Sequence record: NC_004928.1
Origin: Escherichia phage RB69
DNA: 64,000 nucleotides
Reading direction: 5' to 3' (one strand)
Numbering within the stretch: position 1 is the first letter of the stretch; each line of letters opens with the position of its first letter. Positions 10,103-38,040 of this stretch are shown piece after piece. The notes under the pieces were generated by a model, which saw only the letters and a list, made by a program, of their open reading frames with translations, ran no database searches and was not told where the DNA came from. A program made the position numbers and the translations under genes.

Positions 10103-10434
10103 TTTACCGCCTTAACAATTTTCAAGTCAGCGAATTTTTTCTTACGTTGATTTTTCATACTACGGATAGTCTTTTCAGAGATTTCATGTTTCTGATAAGC
10201 TTTAGATTCAACACCAAATGCAGCACCGTCAAATTCAGAAAGAATATATTGTACTCGAATTTCACGAATAGAATTACGTCCAATTTTCTGGTCCGTGTTT
10301 TTGCATGATTTCCATAAAGACGGAAATTCCCACGCGTCAAGAACTTGAGGAGTAACAATATTGCCAGATTCCAGAAGAGCAACAACTTTATCGAAAGCGA
10401 AAGAATTAACTACGCTTTTGATTTTAGTAGACAT
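10099..10434 (-). CDS. hypothetical protein
   Basis: Track ORF 10099..10482 trimmed to internal ATG (MSTKIKSV). Confidence 0.4.
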   Translation of the reverse strand: MSTKIKSVVNSFAFDKVVALLESGNIVTPQVLDAWEFPSLWKSCKNTDQKIGRNSIREIRVQYILSEFDGAAFGVESKAYQKHEISEKTIRSMKNQRKKKFADLKIVKAVK

Positions 10435-11876: not shown

Positions 11877-12088
11877 GTTTTCCTCTGTGGTAGATGATGC
11901 TAATCTTAACATATCTATCGAGGATGTAAACTGTTTTATGAAAATATTTTTGATTTGAGAGGGGCACAAGGAGATAGTGAAGTGAAGATTCCAATGGATT
12001 ATATTAGAAATGAGATAAAGAAGACCAGGCGGCACCTGGTCAATCTTCTATGATATCAGAGTCGTATCCTAATGAAATCAAGGACTTT

Positions 12089-12361
12089 TTAAACTCTGCA
12101 ATATCTTTGTTTCTTATCATTTAAAAATATGACAGGATAACGAATATTAAGTGAAGTGAATCCTGCACGTTTAGCAAGAGATACGATTAAAGGACGGTCA
12201 TATTCAATCTTACCATTATTAGTGAGGACTTTATAAAATGTATAAGGAGCATTGAGCTCCTTTAAAAGTTTTGTAACAGTATAACATCCTGGACAACGTC
12301 CAACTTCTTCAGGGATGCCATATATTTCAATCTTGTTCTTTAAGTTCGAGTTTTGTTCCAC
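12089..12361 (-). CDS. nrdH: glutaredoxin-like protein (NrdH position); start codon uncertain
   Basis: CPGC redox motif (IEIYGIPEEVGRCPGCY); track N-terminal extension overlaps upstream ORF; possible GTG start. Confidence 0.5.
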   Translation of the reverse strand: MEQNSNLKNKIEIYGIPEEVGRCPGCYTVTKLLKELNAPYTFYKVLTNNGKIEYDRPLIVSLAKRAGFTSLNIRYPVIFLNDKKQRYCRV

Positions 12362-12976: not shown

Positions 12977-13447
12977 TTAATCATGTTTCCACACCCCATC
13001 GGTATTTGACCAAAGTCGCTGATTATCTGATCCTCGCCATAGCTTTTTGGTCGGAAGATTTTTCTCATACTTCCCATCAATAATAACATCAACATATTTA
13101 AGCATTTCTAGTTGTTTAATATCTTCAAACTTGTATCCTGTCCACAACCAAATGCTTTTATTGGGATAAAGATTTTTTACTGTTTGAGCAATGCAATGAA
13201 TAACATCTCGATTGTCAGGATAGAGAGGGTCACCTCCGGTTATAGTCAATCCTTCTATATAATCGTTATTCAAACATTCAATTAATTGTTCTAGTGTTTC
13301 ACCAGTGAATGGAACACCATTTCTAGCATTCCATGTTGATTTATTATAACACCCTTCACATTTATGCAAACAACCTGTAACGAAAAGAACGACCCTACAA
13401 CCAGGGCCATTCACAAAATCGCAAGGATAAAATCTATCATAATTCAT
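12977..13447 (-). CDS. nrdG: anaerobic ribonucleotide reductase activating protein NrdG (radical SAM)
   Basis: 156 aa; CLHKCEGCYN cysteine cluster; near-identical to T4 NrdG. Confidence 0.9.
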   Translation of the reverse strand: MNYDRFYPCDFVNGPGCRVVLFVTGCLHKCEGCYNKSTWNARNGVPFTGETLEQLIECLNNDYIEGLTITGGDPLYPDNRDVIHCIAQTVKNLYPNKSIWLWTGYKFEDIKQLEMLKYVDVIIDGKYEKNLPTKKLWRGSDNQRLWSNTDGVWKHD

Positions 13448-15261
13448 TGGTGTTTAACCCTATGCATGATTTCTTTATTTTTACCGAGATTAAATCCGCG
13501 TTCGTTCGGATTTCCCAAATAACCGCATGTTCTTCTTATGGTGTTCATCTTTTTAGGATCAGTTTCTCCACAAATAGAACAAACAAATCCGGTTTCAGTA
13601 GGAGTCATTTCATGGGTACTTCCGCATGTAAAACATTTATCTACTGGCATATTAACACCAAAATAATCTAAATGTTGTGCAGCATAATCCCACACGGCCT
13701 CAAGACCTTTTAAGTTATTTTTCATATCAGGAAGTTCAACATAAGAAATGTGACCACCTGTCGCAATGAAATGATATGGCGCTTCACGAGAAATCTTTTC
13801 AAACGGAGTAATATTTTCTTCTACTGAAACATGGAAACTATTAGTGTACCAGCCTTTATCAGTAACATCCTTTACACTTCCATATTTTTCTGTATCAAGT
13901 TTACAGAAGCGATAACAAAGGTTTTCAGCAGGTGTAGAATACAAGCTAAAAGCAAACCCAGTTCTTTCAGTCCATTGTTTAAGAAGAGCATTCATTTTAG
14001 TTAAAATTTCTTGTCCAATATCACGACCGACAAGAATATTCAATTCGTGAATACCAATGTATCCTAGGGACACTGAACTTCTACCATTTTTAAATAACTC
14101 AATTATGTCATCATCAGGTTTAAGACGAACCCCGAATGCACCTTCTTGGTAAAGAATAGGAGCAACAGTAGCTTTAACTCCTTTTAAGGAACTAATTCTA
14201 CACATCAAAGCTTCAAAACACAGGTCCATTCGCTCATCGAACAATTCAGTAAATTTCTGTTCATTGAACTGTGTTCCAATATAAGAATCTAACGCAATAC
14301 GAGGAAGATTCAGTGTTACAACGCCAAGATTATTGCGTCCATCAAGAATTTCATTGCCAGTTGAATCTTTCCATATGCTCAAGAAACTACGGCAACCCAT
14401 TGGAGAAACAGGAACTGAAGAACCGGTAATAGCTTTATTATTCTTAACCGAAATAATGTCAGGATACATTCTTTTGCTTGCGCACTCTAACGCAAGTTGT
14501 TTAATATCATAGTTCGGATCATCTTTATAAAGATTAACACCTTCTTCAACAAACATAACAAGTTTAGGAAAAATAGGAGTTATTCCATCACGACCAAGAC
14601 CTTTAATGCGGTTTTTAAGAATTGCTTTCTGAATCATTCGTTCAGTCCAGTCAGTTCCCGTACCAAATGTAATTGTTACAAAAGGCGTTTGTCCGTTTGA
14701 ACTAAAGAGAGTATTTACTTCATATTCATAAGCTTGGAATGCATCGTATACGTCTTTTTCTGTTTTAGACTGGGCATAATTCAACGCATCAGCGATTTGC
14801 CATTTTTCTGCATCCTCAATATGTTTTGCATAGGTGCGTTTAACATAAGGAGAAAGTACTTTATCTACATTAGCAAAAGTCGTTCCGCCGTATTGATGGG
14901 AAGCAACCTGTGCAGTAATTTGTGCCATAATTGCAGTAGCAACGCCAATAGATTTAGGCGTTTCAATTTGAGCATTGCCTAATTTAAATCCATTCTCAAG
15001 CATCCCCTTTAAATCGACTAAACAGCAATTGGTAAACGGAAGAGCAGGAGAATAATCAATATCATGCATGTGAATGATTCCGCTTTCATGCGCATGCATA
15101 ATAAAAGACGGGACCATATTTTTGGCAATGTGCTTAGACACAATACCAGCCATAAGGTCCCGTTGAGTTGGAAAAACACGAGAATCTTTATTAGCATTCT
15201 CGTTCAAAAGATCTTTATTAGTTTTATAAATTAATCCTTCAATTTCTTTTTCAATTTTCAT
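13444..15261 (-). CDS. nrdD: anaerobic ribonucleoside-triphosphate reductase NrdD (glycyl radical enzyme)
   Basis: 605 aa; C-terminal glycyl radical motif RTCGYLG; uninterrupted ORF. Confidence 0.9.
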   Translation of the reverse strand: MKIEKEIEGLIYKTNKDLLNENANKDSRVFPTQRDLMAGIVSKHIAKNMVPSFIMHAHESGIIHMHDIDYSPALPFTNCCLVDLKGMLENGFKLGNAQIETPKSIGVATAIMAQITAQVASHQYGGTTFANVDKVLSPYVKRTYAKHIEDAEKWQIADALNYAQSKTEKDVYDAFQAYEYEVNTLFSSNGQTPFVTITFGTGTDWTERMIQKAILKNRIKGLGRDGITPIFPKLVMFVEEGVNLYKDDPNYDIKQLALECASKRMYPDIISVKNNKAITGSSVPVSPMGCRSFLSIWKDSTGNEILDGRNNLGVVTLNLPRIALDSYIGTQFNEQKFTELFDERMDLCFEALMCRISSLKGVKATVAPILYQEGAFGVRLKPDDDIIELFKNGRSSVSLGYIGIHELNILVGRDIGQEILTKMNALLKQWTERTGFAFSLYSTPAENLCYRFCKLDTEKYGSVKDVTDKGWYTNSFHVSVEENITPFEKISREAPYHFIATGGHISYVELPDMKNNLKGLEAVWDYAAQHLDYFGVNMPVDKCFTCGSTHEMTPTETGFVCSICGETDPKKMNTIRRTCGYLGNPNERGFNLGKNKEIMHRVKHQ

Positions 15262-15731
15262 TTTAAACTCTTTCTAAGCTGCTTTTTGAATGAAGCTATT
15301 AATTGTGTTTTAGTATCAGATTCATTATATTCAAATCCTCTTTGAAGCATCTCAGCCATCATTTCCTCTTTACCTAGTCTTGAGAACTCTTTAGTTTTGT
15401 CTGGAACAAAATTAGGATGGATATTATTATCAGAATAATCTTGTTTCAAATAAGCAAGAAGAGCTTCAAGCCATTCTAAGTAGTCAACGTTTTGTCCTTT
15501 CAAACCGGAACGGTTGAACTTATGCTTCATTTGACCTTCTGCTGCGTTGCACAGATTACAGAGTAATCCACGAACTCTACCGGCTTTTGGCCCGTTTAAT
15601 TCATGGTCGTGGTCAAGATGGTTACCTTGAACATCAGGGTCTAATTCACGGTGGCAAATAGGACACTTACCGTTCTGTGCATCATAAAATTTTTGTTTTT
15701 CTTCTTTATATTTTGCGCCTGATAATAACAT
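15258..15731 (-). CDS. 49: endonuclease VII (Holliday junction resolvase) gp49
   Basis: 157 aa; MLLSGAKYKEEKQKFYDAQNGKCPIC... near-identical to T4 gp49. Confidence 0.9.
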   Translation of the reverse strand: MLLSGAKYKEEKQKFYDAQNGKCPICHRELDPDVQGNHLDHDHELNGPKAGRVRGLLCNLCNAAEGQMKHKFNRSGLKGQNVDYLEWLEALLAYLKQDYSDNNIHPNFVPDKTKEFSRLGKEEMMAEMLQRGFEYNESDTKTQLIASFKKQLRKSLK

Positions 15732-15744
15732 GATAAACCCTTAC

Positions 15745-15790
15745 CTTAAATAGATAAGGGTATTTATAATTTAGTAAACGTTATAAAAGT
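15745..15790 (-). promoter_or_regulatory. promoter region upstream of gene 49 (late TATAAATA box plus early-like GTTTAC/TATAAA)
   Basis: forward TATTTATA at 15761..15768 gives TATAAATA on minus strand; GTTTAC 17 nt upstream. Confidence 0.4.
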
Positions 15791-15950
15791 CTCGATGAAA
15801 ACGTTTATATTGACGAATCATTTTCTTAGTAGGACGTGTTACTGAAATAATTGAAGTAGTCATAGTCGGATTGTTTGGAGCGCCAGTCATAACAAATTTC
15901 CAGGATTTTTGGCCATTTTTTCTTTCACCATAAAATAATTCAGTTTTCAT
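15771..15950 (-). CDS. small basic protein (59 aa), paralog of the disrupted copy at 16375..16546
   Basis: ATG with SD AAAGG; MKTELFYGERKNGQKSWKF...RPTKKMIRQYKRFHRDFYNVY; below the track length cutoff. Confidence 0.4.
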   Translation of the reverse strand: MKTELFYGERKNGQKSWKFVMTGAPNNPTMTTSIISVTRPTKKMIRQYKRFHRDFYNVY

Positions 15951-15959
15951 AATAAACCT

Positions 15960-16373
15960 TTAACTTAAACGTCTTTCTAAATATTCAATGTATTCCGCTG
16001 CGGCTTGCATCAGATTACCTTCATAACCGTCATTATTTTCTTGGGCGGCTAATTTAGCTAAAGCATAAGAAATACGTTCACCTTCGAATTCGCCAAGTCC
16101 ACCATCACAAACTACTTGGTCAATTTCTTCGAGTTCATCTATTGAATGGGATTCCCAGAAGCACCAAAGAGAAGTATCACGGTCATAGATGCAAAGTTTC
16201 TCACCTGTGTTCAACATCACTTCGATAATGCCATGGTCGCCATAACCATCTTCGGTAGTAGTACCAATTACCTTGATGATTGTTCCTTTCTTTAATTCAG
16301 GAAACTTGACTTGTAGTTCTTCATCTTCTTTAACAATCTTGAACCATTTACCGCGAGTTTCAGAAATATTCAT
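15960..16373 (-). CDS. hypothetical protein (pin position)
   Basis: Track ORF 15960..16511 trimmed to MNISETRGKW; the N-terminal extension is another gene in a different frame. Confidence 0.5.
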   Translation of the reverse strand: MNISETRGKWFKIVKEDEELQVKFPELKKGTIIKVIGTTTEDGYGDHGIIEVMLNTGEKLCIYDRDTSLWCFWESHSIDELEEIDQVVCDGGLGEFEGERISYALAKLAAQENNDGYEGNLMQAAAEYIEYLERRLS

Positions 16374-16374
16374 A

Positions 16375-16546
16375 TCAATATTCTCTATAAAAGTTACGAT
16401 GAGAACGTTTAGCTTTGCGAAGCTGACGTTTAGTAGGACGAACTGTAAATGGTTGTCCAGAGAAAAAATTCGGATCGGTTTTAATAAGCAAATACCAATC
16501 ATGTTTGCCATTTTTTTAATAAACGGTACAATAATTTAACTTGCAT
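16375..16546 (-). pseudogene. frameshifted paralog of the 15771..15950 small basic protein (A7 homopolymer)
   Basis: ATG at 16546 reads MQVKLLYRLLKKWQT-stop; a +1 shift at the A7 run restores NGKHDWYLL...RPTKRQLRKAKRSHRNFYREY, homologous to the intact copy. Confidence 0.35.
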
Positions 16547-17028
16547 AATAATCTCTTCCCATTTCCATATCAATTAATTCATTTATTGAAGGTTCATCAT
16601 AACATGGTTCTTCGTCGTTGTAAACCGTTTCGACGTCTGGCTCGACAGTCTCCCATCGAGCAGAATACCACGGTTTAACCCCGGAGTTTATTGAGCTCTT
16701 CATAATCAATCCAGGATTCTAGCCCTGACGGCAGGTCACATTCAATGTTCCACAGAAGCTCTTCAATGGCTTGCAGGCGATTATATTCTTCAACGGTAAT
16801 GGTAACCATTGGTGCAACCGGTTCTGCCTTTTTAACCATCATATCGTTCATCAGGACGTAAAGGTCATCACGAACGACAGTGTCCGTTCCAACCCCATGA
16901 TTTGGCTTCGTAAGCTAATGATGAAGGGAGCACATTTAAAACTTCAAAAATAGTTGGAGCATCAGGACCAAGTTCATTGGCACAAACTTCGTATACATCT
17001 TGGAAATCTTTAAGATTTAATGAATATG

Positions 17029-17292
17029 TCATTTAAAATATTCTCGCAGTTGGTCAAATCCACCAATGTGACTTCCGTCAGGAGCAAACACTTGAGGCAT
17101 AGTCAATCCGACTTGTGATTCACGTCCAAGCTTAACCAGAAGCTCAGCAATTTTCTCATCATCAAAAACACCTTTTTCTGGCATAACATTAATGAATTCG
17201 AACGGCTGTTTCTTAACAGTCAGCAATCGTTTCGCATTATCACAATAAATGCATTTATGAATAGTAGAGTCATACCCGTACACTTTAAACAT
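17029..17292 (-). CDS. nrdC: thioredoxin/glutaredoxin NrdC
   Basis: MFKVYGYDSTIHKCIYCDNAKRLL near-identical to T4 NrdC; start trimmed. Confidence 0.9.
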   Translation of the reverse strand: MFKVYGYDSTIHKCIYCDNAKRLLTVKKQPFEFINVMPEKGVFDDEKIAELLVKLGRESQVGLTMPQVFAPDGSHIGGFDQLREYFK

Positions 17293-17698: not shown

Positions 17699-18003
17699 TA
17701 TAATGTTCTCTCAAATTTGTGGAAGCATTTACGGCATTTCAATTTCAAGTTATCAGTGGTCCAGTTAACCAGTTGGACTTGGATAGTTCCACATTCCGGA
17801 TATGGATGGTTTGATGCCGATTTGGCAGCATTTTCACGTCGTTCAACCATTTTCATTATTTCGTTCCATGCTGGAGGAACGAACTCTTCTTCACCATGAA
17901 TTTTATCTCGCTGAACAAATTCAATCTTTGAACTATCGTCAATAAACTTAACCAAGCCATGATTAGTGCTCATATCAATATCCTCTAAAAGACGTAGTTT
18001 CAT
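17698..18003 (-). CDS. hypothetical protein with C-terminal Cys-rich region
   Basis: 101 aa; C..C..H / CRKC motif suggests a zinc-binding fold. Confidence 0.45.
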   Translation of the reverse strand: MKLRLLEDIDMSTNHGLVKFIDDSSKIEFVQRDKIHGEEEFVPPAWNEIMKMVERRENAAKSASNHPYPECGTIQVQLVNWTTDNLKLKCRKCFHKFERTL

Positions 18004-19006: not shown

Positions 19007-19069
19007 GTTTTTATGATTTTAATGCATTCATTGCGTTAAAAAGTTTAGAATACTGCAACTGGAGATTCG

Positions 19070-19972
19070 TTACAACACTTTGAGCATCACGGAGCTTAGC
19101 TTGTGCCTTGTCCAGTTCAACAGACAGTTGGTCCACGGGGGCTTTGATTTGGTTGTAATGGTAATCTTCGGCCGGAAGAAGGCATTAGAACATTTAGTTT
19201 TACTGCCGACAGTTTGCACACATTTGGCAACCTTTAACATACCAGGTTGTGCCGGAGCTGGAGAATATGCACCTAAGACTTCGGCATTACCAACTGGTGT
19301 TGCAGTAATTGACGCTTCGAACGTTGCATTTTCCTTTTTAAGATTTTGATAGTATTCAGAGTCTTTGTGCCACCATGGCGCAGGAACCTTTTTACCAATA
19401 GATACACGAGCCTGGATAGCAATATGACCCTTATTCTTGATGGGGTCGATAATATTAAGCTCACGAGAATAAATTGCTTTAATCTGGTGGATATTATCAC
19501 CTAACACTTCCAACGCTTGGTGGAATACACGAGCAACGTTATCATTCTTAGGTTTATACGTAAGAGTGAACTCATTCTCACTGATAACCATGATTTCCAA
19601 CTTATCGTAAGTATATTTCAAATGTTTCATGTTAATTGCTTGAGGACGAATACGAGAAGCAATGGCCAACAGATTGTTAAGGTTATTTCTGAACTGTTTA
19701 GCAAAATATTGTCCGTAGCCGCCGATACAAAAATTACGAAGTTTCTGTTTGGCTAATAAACGGCTGAACTCACCATTTTTAATGAACTCTTTAACGGGTG
19801 TGTTAGTAACGCATTCAAATTGAGTAAACTTACGAGAATTAATCCCATAATATGAACAGATTTCCTCAATCTCTTCAGGAGTCTTTACAGGCATACGGAT
19901 AGGATTAGGTCCTGGAGTATATGCGTTCGAGGTAAATTCTTTGATAAGTTCTCTACGTGTAATAGAAGCCAT
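19070..19972 (-). CDS. hypothetical protein (300 aa)
   Basis: Long ORF with its own promoter cassette. Confidence 0.55.
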   Translation of the reverse strand: MASITRRELIKEFTSNAYTPGPNPIRMPVKTPEEIEEICSYYGINSRKFTQFECVTNTPVKEFIKNGEFSRLLAKQKLRNFCIGGYGQYFAKQFRNNLNNLLAIASRIRPQAINMKHLKYTYDKLEIMVISENEFTLTYKPKNDNVARVFHQALEVLGDNIHQIKAIYSRELNIIDPIKNKGHIAIQARVSIGKKVPAPWWHKDSEYYQNLKKENATFEASITATPVGNAEVLGAYSPAPAQPGMLKVAKCVQTVGSKTKCSNAFFRPKITITTKSKPPWTNCLLNWTRHKLSSVMLKVL

Positions 19973-21085: not shown

Positions 21086-21613
21086 TTATGCGTGAACCGT
21101 CTTTAAACGTTCTTCAAATTTCCGAAGAGTACTAATACGTTCTGCTTTCTGTTTTGTATAGTTTGCAATACGTTCTGAAGTGAGAGCGTATCGTTCGTTT
21201 ACTGTTTCTTTCATGAAGTCAGGGATTTCACGAGAATCTCCAATTTCATCAAACTTATCGAGTACTGCCTGGTCTTCAGCAATTAAATTTTCGTACATCT
21301 CGATATCTTTCTTAATAAACTCGATATCTTCCTGGGTTACTTTGGATAAACGAGATGCTTTATCCTTTTTGTGCTGTTCGTTAGTTTCACGAGACCAGAA
21401 TAATGTACGTTTTTTGTTAGTGTTTTTGTAGACTTCCACAATTCCAACTGAATCGATGATAACAATCCAATTCCAGCGAGATTTGAAAATCTGACCTCCG
21501 TCCACGGTAATCTCGTTACCATAAGCAACGTCATTAAAGAACTTGCTTTGTGCTTCAGATTTAAATTTACCGTCGTTATAATTTACCAGGTTGAAAATAT
21601 CTTTAGCGTTCAT
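21086..21613 (-). CDS. hypothetical protein
   Basis: 175-aa ORF preceded by promoter cassette at 21632..21670. Confidence 0.5.
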   Translation of the reverse strand: MNAKDIFNLVNYNDGKFKSEAQSKFFNDVAYGNEITVDGGQIFKSRWNWIVIIDSVGIVEVYKNTNKKRTLFWSRETNEQHKKDKASRLSKVTQEDIEFIKKDIEMYENLIAEDQAVLDKFDEIGDSREIPDFMKETVNERYALTSERIANYTKQKAERISTLRKFEERLKTVHA

Positions 21614-21947: not shown

Positions 21948-21997
21948 AATTTCCTCATTTCAGTAAAGTAACTTCCGAGATTTCCTCCCAACCATCT

Positions 21998-22948
21998 TTA
22001 TCCAGTTGAAATAAAATCTGCTACATAAAGAGCCGTACGTAATGATACATTGCGAAGACGAGATACGTTAGCCTTCATCCAGGACAATGCTTTGTACGTT
22101 TCTGCATCCGTCAGGCCACGTTTCTGCATCATGTCAGTAGATAATATTACATCTTCAACTCTGACCATAATCTCTTCATTAGAGTGTACTCCAAGGTCCA
22201 AATACACTGAACGAGATACTAAAGCTTGAAGGTGTGGAGCAAGTTTCGAACCGCGTTCTAACTCTTTATCGATATCAACGTTTGTAATGAAAACGATAGT
22301 ACCTTCAAACTCAAATTCTTTATCGATACCCTTATCATCAAGATAAGATGATGCAGTGCTCCAGCAAACTTTGCGTTTATCACCAGTATCTAATGCGGCT
22401 TTAAGAAGGTTCAAGATATCCATATCTGAGAATACGTCAACGTCGTCGATTAAGAGAACACTGTCTGCATCACGGTTGAGCCAAAGTTGTTCGTAAAGGC
22501 CAATACCAGAGATTTTGCCATTAATGCTTTTGTATTTGATGAAACCATTATCATTAGCATTATTAAGCGCTTTATCCAGAGAATACGTCTTACCAATACC
22601 TGCTGCACCTGAAATAATGAGTGAACGAATTTTGCCATCAATAATGCCATTCGTCATCATGTTCATTACTTTAAAGCGTTTGTTGATACGAGTTTTCATA
22701 TCTTCAGCGCTTTCAACAACTGCAACTGGTGATGTCTCAACTCCTTCCATTACGATGTCTGATTTGAAGACCCATACTCCACGTTCAGAACCATCAATCA
22801 TACCGAAAATTTTACCGTCACCTAAGTGGGAACATTCAGGATTAAGCTTTGCCGGGAACCATGTCTTTGTGGCAACATAAGAACCAGAGATTTCGTTATT
22901 ACGATAGATACCTTTTTTGATTTGAACGTTGAACATTTTATTCTCCAA
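21998..22948 (-). CDS. AAA-type P-loop ATPase
   Basis: Walker A GAAGIGKT, Walker B LLIDDVDVF, sensor-like FITN; 316 aa. Confidence 0.6.
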   Translation of the reverse strand: MENKMFNVQIKKGIYRNNEISGSYVATKTWFPAKLNPECSHLGDGKIFGMIDGSERGVWVFKSDIVMEGVETSPVAVVESAEDMKTRINKRFKVMNMMTNGIIDGKIRSLIISGAAGIGKTYSLDKALNNANDNGFIKYKSINGKISGIGLYEQLWLNRDADSVLLIDDVDVFSDMDILNLLKAALDTGDKRKVCWSTASSYLDDKGIDKEFEFEGTIVFITNVDIDKELERGSKLAPHLQALVSRSVYLDLGVHSNEEIMVRVEDVILSTDMMQKRGLTDAETYKALSWMKANVSRLRNVSLRTALYVADFISTG

Positions 22949-37724: not shown

Positions 37725-37824
37725 AATGATTCCTTAGCACAACGCAGGAGACGAAACCCAAGCACCTTCAGTAATAACGTAACCATTACCTTCACGCTTA
37801 ACATCGCCACCATTATTTTCAATT

Positions 37825-38040
37825 TCATTTTTCATACCACTGGGATACGATTTCACCCTTAGGATAATAAGTACGACCGCTACCATAATCACCTACAGAA
37901 AATGATACGGCATATTGGTCTGCGATCTTTGTTGCTTCTTCTTCGATACGTTCAGCTTGATTCAGAAGTTTATAAATTGCATCTGAAGCGGATTTGGCAT
38001 CATTAAATTCTGGTACTTTAATTTCGATAATCTTACTCAT
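37825..38040 (-). CDS. small protein, member of a tandem mosaic trio
   Basis: 71 aa; YGSGRTYYPKG motif. Confidence 0.45.
   Translation of the reverse strand: MSKIIEIKVPEFNDAKSASDAIYKLLNQAERIEEEATKIADQYAVSFSVGDYGSGRTYYPKGEIVSQWYEK

Follow-up and report, generated by a model that had tools for sequence, protein, structure and literature searches.

Tracts of six adenines are documented frameshift hot spots in T-even phages, and in T2, T4 and T6 most homopolymers of at least six bases show variants one base longer or shorter in deep sequencing (bioRxiv 10.1101/2025.10.21.683753). In the same work, reversion of an engineered A6-to-A7 allele of T4 rIIA was found to outpace that of a point mutation by a factor of about 10,000 (bioRxiv 10.1101/2025.10.21.683753). 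A comparable tract is found in Escherichia phage RB69, in the upstream of two genes (copies A and B) for small proteins of the DUF7279 family. Copy B resembles the A6 hot spots of T4 rII and the contingency loci T2 agt and T4 rIIA (Gomez, Barrick and Waters 2025): the phages belong to the same subfamily, the A6 lies in an open reading frame, one added A would be expected to give a null allele, and ready reversion is expected. Unlike those loci, the RB69 allele is known from consensus sequence, and at that level it is fixed in RB69 stocks.

Three other kinds of system invite comparison. Programmed −1 sites on A_AAA_AAG/A, such as those of E. coli dnaX, IS elements and pDEST17 attB1, share the heptamer A_AAA_AAA with the RB69 zero frame; in RB69, however, a −1 shift leaves the gene unrestored, and neither a stimulator nor conservation was found, so copy B is not a member of this group. 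Rescue by transcriptional slippage, described for Citrobacter rodentium tssM, endosymbiont poly(A) tracts, Shigella mxiE and A9 IS elements, likewise involves a homopolymer exactly at the break in the reading frame. The runs in those systems are at least 8–11 bases long and are either conserved among homologs or accompanied by experimentally demonstrated rescue, whereas the RB69 run comprises seven A's in one strain. A unitary frameshift pseudogene with an intact paralog provides a further parallel, with intact orthologs under selection, a single indel and an intact paralog 600 nt away; copy B of RB69 differs in that it has no secondary decay and is therefore extremely young.

The window analysed here is a stretch of 64,000 nucleotides of RB69 (NC_004928.1), whose closest non-RB69 genomes are Mosigvirus phages with 96–97% DNA identity to it. 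Several products private to the window, namely the 300-aa NrdC.5 (AAP75999.1), RB69ORF091c, RB69ORF092c and RB69ORF089c, match exactly proteins that occur in RB69 alone. Two replication proteins proved less telling: gp45 is identical in every residue to PDB chain 1B77, the RB69 clamp, and the gp43 N-terminus scores highest against 1CLQ, but at least two relatives share both sequences. Every gene between 13.4 and 19 kb lies on the minus strand. The genes nrdD (13444-15261) and 49, which encodes endonuclease VII (15258-15731), are followed in order of increasing coordinate by a terminator-like hairpin (15733..15760, minus strand) in the gap between gene 49 and copy A. The records of ATK47 and WFbE185 annotate such a hairpin at the corresponding place, and our own terminator scan left it uncalled because its loop is too long; the promoter and terminator scan of the locus gave nothing above shuffle expectation. 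Copy A (15771..15950; RB69ORF087c, exact protein match to AAP75989.1) is an intact open reading frame for a basic protein of 59 aa. The next gene is pin (15960..16373; AAP75990.1), which encodes the 137-aa inhibitor of the host Lon protease (PF10465 Inhibitor_I24, E=1e-48; phrog_2167; exact match to RB69 Pin). Copy B (16375..16546) is frameshifted in RB69 and is an intact 56-aa gene in relatives. Its start is overlapped by 11 nt by the 3' end of a gp49.1-like gene (16536..16703; 55 aa from its ATG; phrog_2382, E=4e-28; exact match to AAP75992.1; named gp49.1 in ATK47), beyond which lie a split 118-aa gene and nrdC.

The original prediction, made from sequence alone, described an intact 59-aa open reading frame at 15771..15950 with a disrupted paralog upstream of pin, and both parts of this description are borne out. 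Copy A matches PF23945 (DUF7279) with 58.1 bits and copy B, restored by removal of one A, with 54.5 bits, against a curated cutoff of 24.5; the corresponding E-values for phrog_3272 are 2e-30 and 6e-27. The restored copy B protein aligns with copy A over its full length at 36% identity (BLASTP, E=2e-11). The paralogy is therefore real and not a chance resemblance. In both paralogs Lys-Asn-Gly is encoded with the same AAAAAATGGC at the same position, which indicates that the A6 tract is ancestral.

Copy B breaks at an A7 run of the coding strand (16511..16517, minus strand; T7 on the plus strand). Translation from the ATG at 16546 reads MQVKLLYRLLKKWQT in the zero frame and stops at a TGA (16499-16501), so that the truncated frame (16499..16546) has 15 codons before the stop. 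The frame was originally thought to break after 12 codons. The break itself is confirmed, and the homology to copy A is one codon shorter: the zero frame matches copy A for 11 codons, codon 12 is altered (K for N), and three more codons precede the TGA, which shares bases with an ATG in another frame (ATGA). Skipping one base leads into a frame that, from 16515 down to 16375, reads KNGKHDWYLLIKTDPNFFSGQPFTVRPTKRQLRKAKRSHRNFYREY and then stops, and that does restore a homologous C-terminal part, as had been proposed. This +1-frame segment (16375..16515) holds ancestral residues 11-56 (KNGKHDW...NFYREY and stop) and is undecayed. Deletion of one A from the A7 run gives a 56-aa copy B protein with the junction ...LLKNGKHDWYLLIK; where the restored protein spans ...LLKNGKHDW..., the truncated product ends ...LLKKWQT. 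The current annotation of this region is RB69ORF089c (16375..16491; exact match to AAP75991.1 / NP_861779.1), a remnant of copy B called as a 38-aa protein with a TTG start, for which an exact match was found on one contig only.

The alignment with related phages that had been called for earlier gives a uniform picture, in which relatives carry A6, or in one case A5G, with an uninterrupted reading frame. In the three records closest to RB69 the tract is A6 and the 56-aa frame runs through without a break. A 91-nt probe centred on the run had no exact match among 143 matching phage records in a collection searched without RB69's own records (NC_004928, AY303349), and among the matches listed all 60 rows span 90 nt, which corresponds to A6. 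In IMG/VR, two matches to the A6 form and none to the A7 form were found. Among 36 fetched loci with copy B, the tract is A6 in 29, A5G in one and A7 in six, the last all being RB69-identical. At 80% identity or above, tblastn finds restored copy B intact in 144 records, 71 of which encode the identical protein, and the exact restored 56-aa sequence occurs on 261 public contigs. Because dN/dS is about 0.16 across 15 distinct ortholog alleles, copy B is maintained by selection outside RB69. RB69 copy B shows no change other than the extra A: without it, the RB69 allele equals that of Mosigvirus mar005p1 (OZ035759) base for base over 168 nt, and the break must therefore be very young.

A sequencing or assembly error, with true RB69 carrying A6 and an intact gene, was among the readings first offered for this run, and the reference record gives grounds for suspicion. 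The window contains many single-base indels that are private in comparison with four relatives. Of the 105 genes annotated in WFbE185, six are frame-broken in the window, against zero, one and two in three relatives. Private indels at 16884, 19165-19275 and 22002 are shared with no other database record, and most of the private indels lie outside homopolymers, several being an extra C after T that has the look of a base-calling artefact. An error at the copy B run was accordingly our first working conclusion, drawn from this excess of private frameshifts; it was rejected in view of independent assemblies. Logan de novo assemblies of SRR16629523, -24, -26 and -27, which are 99.85-99.93% identical to the window, were used for this comparison. 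In all four, the 118-aa gene is whole again because the extra base at 16884 is gone, and the two nucleotides missing at 12104/5 are back; these corrections show that the assemblies are independent of the reference. Since they correct neighbouring indels yet keep A7, the extra A is real. The assembler does not lengthen the run, since other Mosigviruses come out as A6 in Logan assemblies. The SRR16629523 contig, found identically in nine samples, also agrees against the reference with contigs of SRR29299745, a different series, the agreement having been read at 22002 and at the four one-base deletions in 19182-19235. Resequencing thus lacks the indels at 16884, 12104/5, 22002 and 19182-19235 and retains A7 at copy B, where an A6 result would have spoken for an error. 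The four confirming runs form one SRA series, probably from one laboratory stock, and as the assemblies report a consensus, a mixture of A6 and A7 within the population is compatible with the A7 read from them. The extra A is physically present in RB69 DNA, whereas the private frameshifts nearby are either mistakes in the reference record or peculiar to the stock behind that record; an error at this particular site is highly improbable.

Copy B of RB69 is probably a recent replication-slippage insertion at an A6 hot spot, which makes it a null and possibly revertible allele. One A would have been added in the RB69 lineage to the ancestral A6 (codons AAA-AAT, Lys-Asn) of the upstream DUF7279 paralog, most likely through slipped-strand mispairing during DNA replication. 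Ribosomes that start at the copy B ATG would yield a 15-residue peptide and terminate at the TGA, leaving the 56-aa protein essentially absent. The orthologs are intact and under purifying selection, and the disruption is reproduced in the four Logan assemblies; of the readings originally proposed, that of a pseudogene is thus supported in the form of a strain-specific frameshift null allele. The insertion would also uncouple translation of copy B from that of pin. In relatives the copy B stop lies two nucleotides ahead of the pin ATG (TGATATG); zero-frame termination in RB69 lies about 125 nt upstream of pin. Because the allele sits in a homopolymer, it should return to A6 at high frequency, and it can also be seen as a hypermutable tract in its OFF state. 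The copy B allele may never have been free of selection for long.

The original prediction also allowed for a slippage-dependent gene. Functional amounts of full-length DUF7279-B would then be made through a +1 ribosomal frameshift or through an RNA polymerase that drops one A. The wholly undecayed downstream frame would fit such a gene, as would the zero-frame stop just three codons past the run, and homopolymeric A runs are known slippage sites (PMC1088944, PMC5009743). The absence of decay is explained equally well by a very recent mutation, however, and relatives encode the protein in one frame: the A7 run with its two-frame layout was found nowhere outside RB69 among the records, IMG/VR contigs and fetched loci compared. 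The motif also points in the wrong direction. In the zero frame the run reads UUA_AAA_AAA_UGG, a heptamer of the −1 type that favours −1, whereas restoration needs +1; frame analysis places the −1 frame from A_AAA_AAA in the pin frame and not in the restoring frame. No significant stimulatory RNA structure was found in a 131-nt fold around and downstream of the run (z = -0.84, with 37 of 200 shuffles folding as well). Seven A's fall below the length at which selection against slippage, and productive slippage, become evident in bacteria, which is about nine A/T and eight in some organisms (PMC1088944). Some unprogrammed slippage on seven A's surely occurs, and a full-length product from polymerase or ribosome slippage would be incidental and of low abundance rather than programmed expression. 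That RB69 depends on slippage for this protein is very unlikely.

The A6/A7 tract could alternatively be a selected contingency locus, kept as a reversible ON/OFF switch with the RB69 population in the OFF state. As a homopolymer of at least six bases in an open reading frame, the tract falls within the operational definition used for T2, T4 and T6 (Gomez et al. 2025), where such tracts vary at about 1e-4 to 1e-3 per genome and revert quickly, and the common coding of Lys-Asn-Gly in the two paralogs would also suit such a locus. Against selection for the tract itself, the length variant occurs in one lineage among about 180 genomes and contigs, and a divergent ortholog in RPN187 has an interrupted tract (AAAAAG) and retains the gene, which shows that the run as such is unconserved. 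Runs of six are moreover common in an AT-rich genome, the 64 kb of the window holding 57 A or T runs with a length of exactly six and four with a length of seven, and the tract has no known phenotype; a selected switch is accordingly an unlikely reading. A bolder version, in which A6/A7 is a selected phase-variation switch of Mosigvirus with RB69 in the OFF state, and in which the heptamer and the ATGA overlap redirect some ribosomes into the pin frame, is very unlikely as a whole; if it were true, a single base would switch the small basic protein on or off and at the same time change which form of the Lon inhibitor is made, or how much of it. Its second element can also be taken alone, as a rewiring of pin by the insertion, with a −1 slip or reinitiation at the ATGA giving an extended Pin of 195 or 180 aa. 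In RB69 the pin frame indeed stays open for 54 codons ahead of the pin ATG, a 183-aa open reading frame (15960-16511) is present, and in an E. coli expression vector C-AAA-AAA led to −1 frameshifting at a level of 25-60% (PMC1851650). The product of a −1 shift would consist of 12 copy B residues, a linker of 46 residues read out of frame, and Pin, with the junction ...LLKKMANMIGICLLK. The extension is unconserved as coding sequence, however: in RPN187 it lacks an ATG altogether, and ATK47 and p000y are each missing one or the other. Pfam Inhibitor_I24 spans only the 137-aa Pin, and the extension is merely the alternative frame of copy B, all of which makes a rewired pin extremely improbable. 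A young null allele at an A6 hot spot consequently stands as the preferred reading of copy B.

The annotation of pin itself varies between records. Several GenBank entries call a protease inhibitor of 183 or 180 aa (e.g. locus L001, 1761-2312) from ATGs that lie inside copy B, and these are probably over-extended start calls. The extended 183/180-aa Pin of these records was considered as a gene product and rejected, as it has no conserved start and is an alternative frame of copy B. In Gaprivervirus VR20 (locus L012, 459-901) pin is annotated as two abutting open reading frames of 57 aa and 89 aa, which suggests that it is frameshifted or misread in that record.

The neighbourhood of pin is plastic among relatives. 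The order B-pin-A is the layout in most Mosigviruses. Copy A is missing and B-pin retained in RPN187 and in contigs L018, L019 and L021, while pin-A without copy B is found in six contigs (L023, L032, L033, L036, L037, L039). Tequatrovirus PP01 and Gaprivervirus VR20 also have pin-A without B, with a single DUF7279 copy after pin. In ECO111 5-P (L007, 33387-33570) and phiE142 (L009), pin is deleted and a B/A hybrid DUF7279 gene remains, which follows copy B up to ...AACTTTTATA and continues with the 3' end of copy A. The two parts of the hybrid meet within ACTTTTATA, which both paralogs have near their 3' ends. The hybrid indicates that the paralogs served as short direct repeats whose recombination removed pin. 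Since relatives show every combination of layouts, losing one DUF7279 copy is commonplace. Loss of copy B from RB69 would likewise be tolerated because copy A is intact and the pin neighbourhood is variable and dispensable among relatives.

The DUF7279 family is narrow. Both an exhaustive HMMER profile search of 1.84 billion representatives and a word-indexed search returned two clusters, those of the profile search being defined at 50% identity. An AlphaFold model of copy A (pLDDT 87) has three strands and a C-terminal basic helix. The model had no significant fold match in the PDB, the best Foldseek hit (E = 0.49) being a weak resemblance to PUR repeats, and a literature search returned no paper mentioning DUF7279. 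From the charge of the protein, nucleic-acid binding may be guessed.

Several other features of the RB69 reference deserve note. RB69ORF091c (58 aa) and RB69ORF092c (54 aa), at 16675-17032 of the window, together make up a single 118-aa gene (phrog_11244), which an extra C at 16884 divides in two (GTGTCCGTT vs GTGTCGTT). This C occurs in 0 of 94 phage records and is absent from the four RB69-identical SRA assemblies, and it looks like an error of the reference record. The C-terminal half of the 118-aa gene product also matches phrog_3402 ('antitoxin'), with a weak hit (E=0.0027) to the RecBCD inhibitor family of T7 gp5.9. NrdC.5 (AAP75999.1, 300 aa, 19011-19972) has four one-base deletions (19182, 19188, 19230, 19235) relative to all relatives; assemblies from two SRA series lack these deletions and encode 321 aa, and the annotated NrdC.5 C-terminus and an adjacent 41-aa open reading frame look like artefacts. 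An extra C at 22002 shifts the last 19 residues of a 326-aa gene (21958-22936); neither the RB69-identical SRA assemblies nor 129 other records have it. A 107-aa gene (12043-12361) has its C-terminus shifted by the 2-nt deletion at 12104/5, a change private to the window that the SRA assemblies put right. An extra A at 37836, private in comparison with four relatives, shifts the C-terminal third of a 101-aa gene (37737-38040). Further single-base indels private against the same four relatives are found at 10293, 10312, 10324, 10787, 10821, 29381 and 33169/33191, with three insertions within 31 nt at 10293-10324 summing to +3. Single-base differences between the reference and the RB69-identical SRA assemblies at 17801-17814, 16948, 11601, 21237-21241, 21373, 22803 and 19139 could be reference errors or true differences between stocks.

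The value of these findings is mainly practical. RB69ORF089c is a frameshifted DUF7279 remnant and not a 38-aa gene of its own. Because the frameshift is real, the appropriate annotation for copy B is that of a disrupted gene, without any "correction". Resequencing removes the reference errors behind RB69ORF091c/092c, the 300-aa NrdC.5 and the shifted C-termini of the 326-aa and 107-aa genes. The event seen in copy B opens no new mechanism. For the biology of these phages, the genes around pin are individually dispensable, and copy B adds a naturally occurring case to the A6 frameshift hot spots of T-even-type phages.
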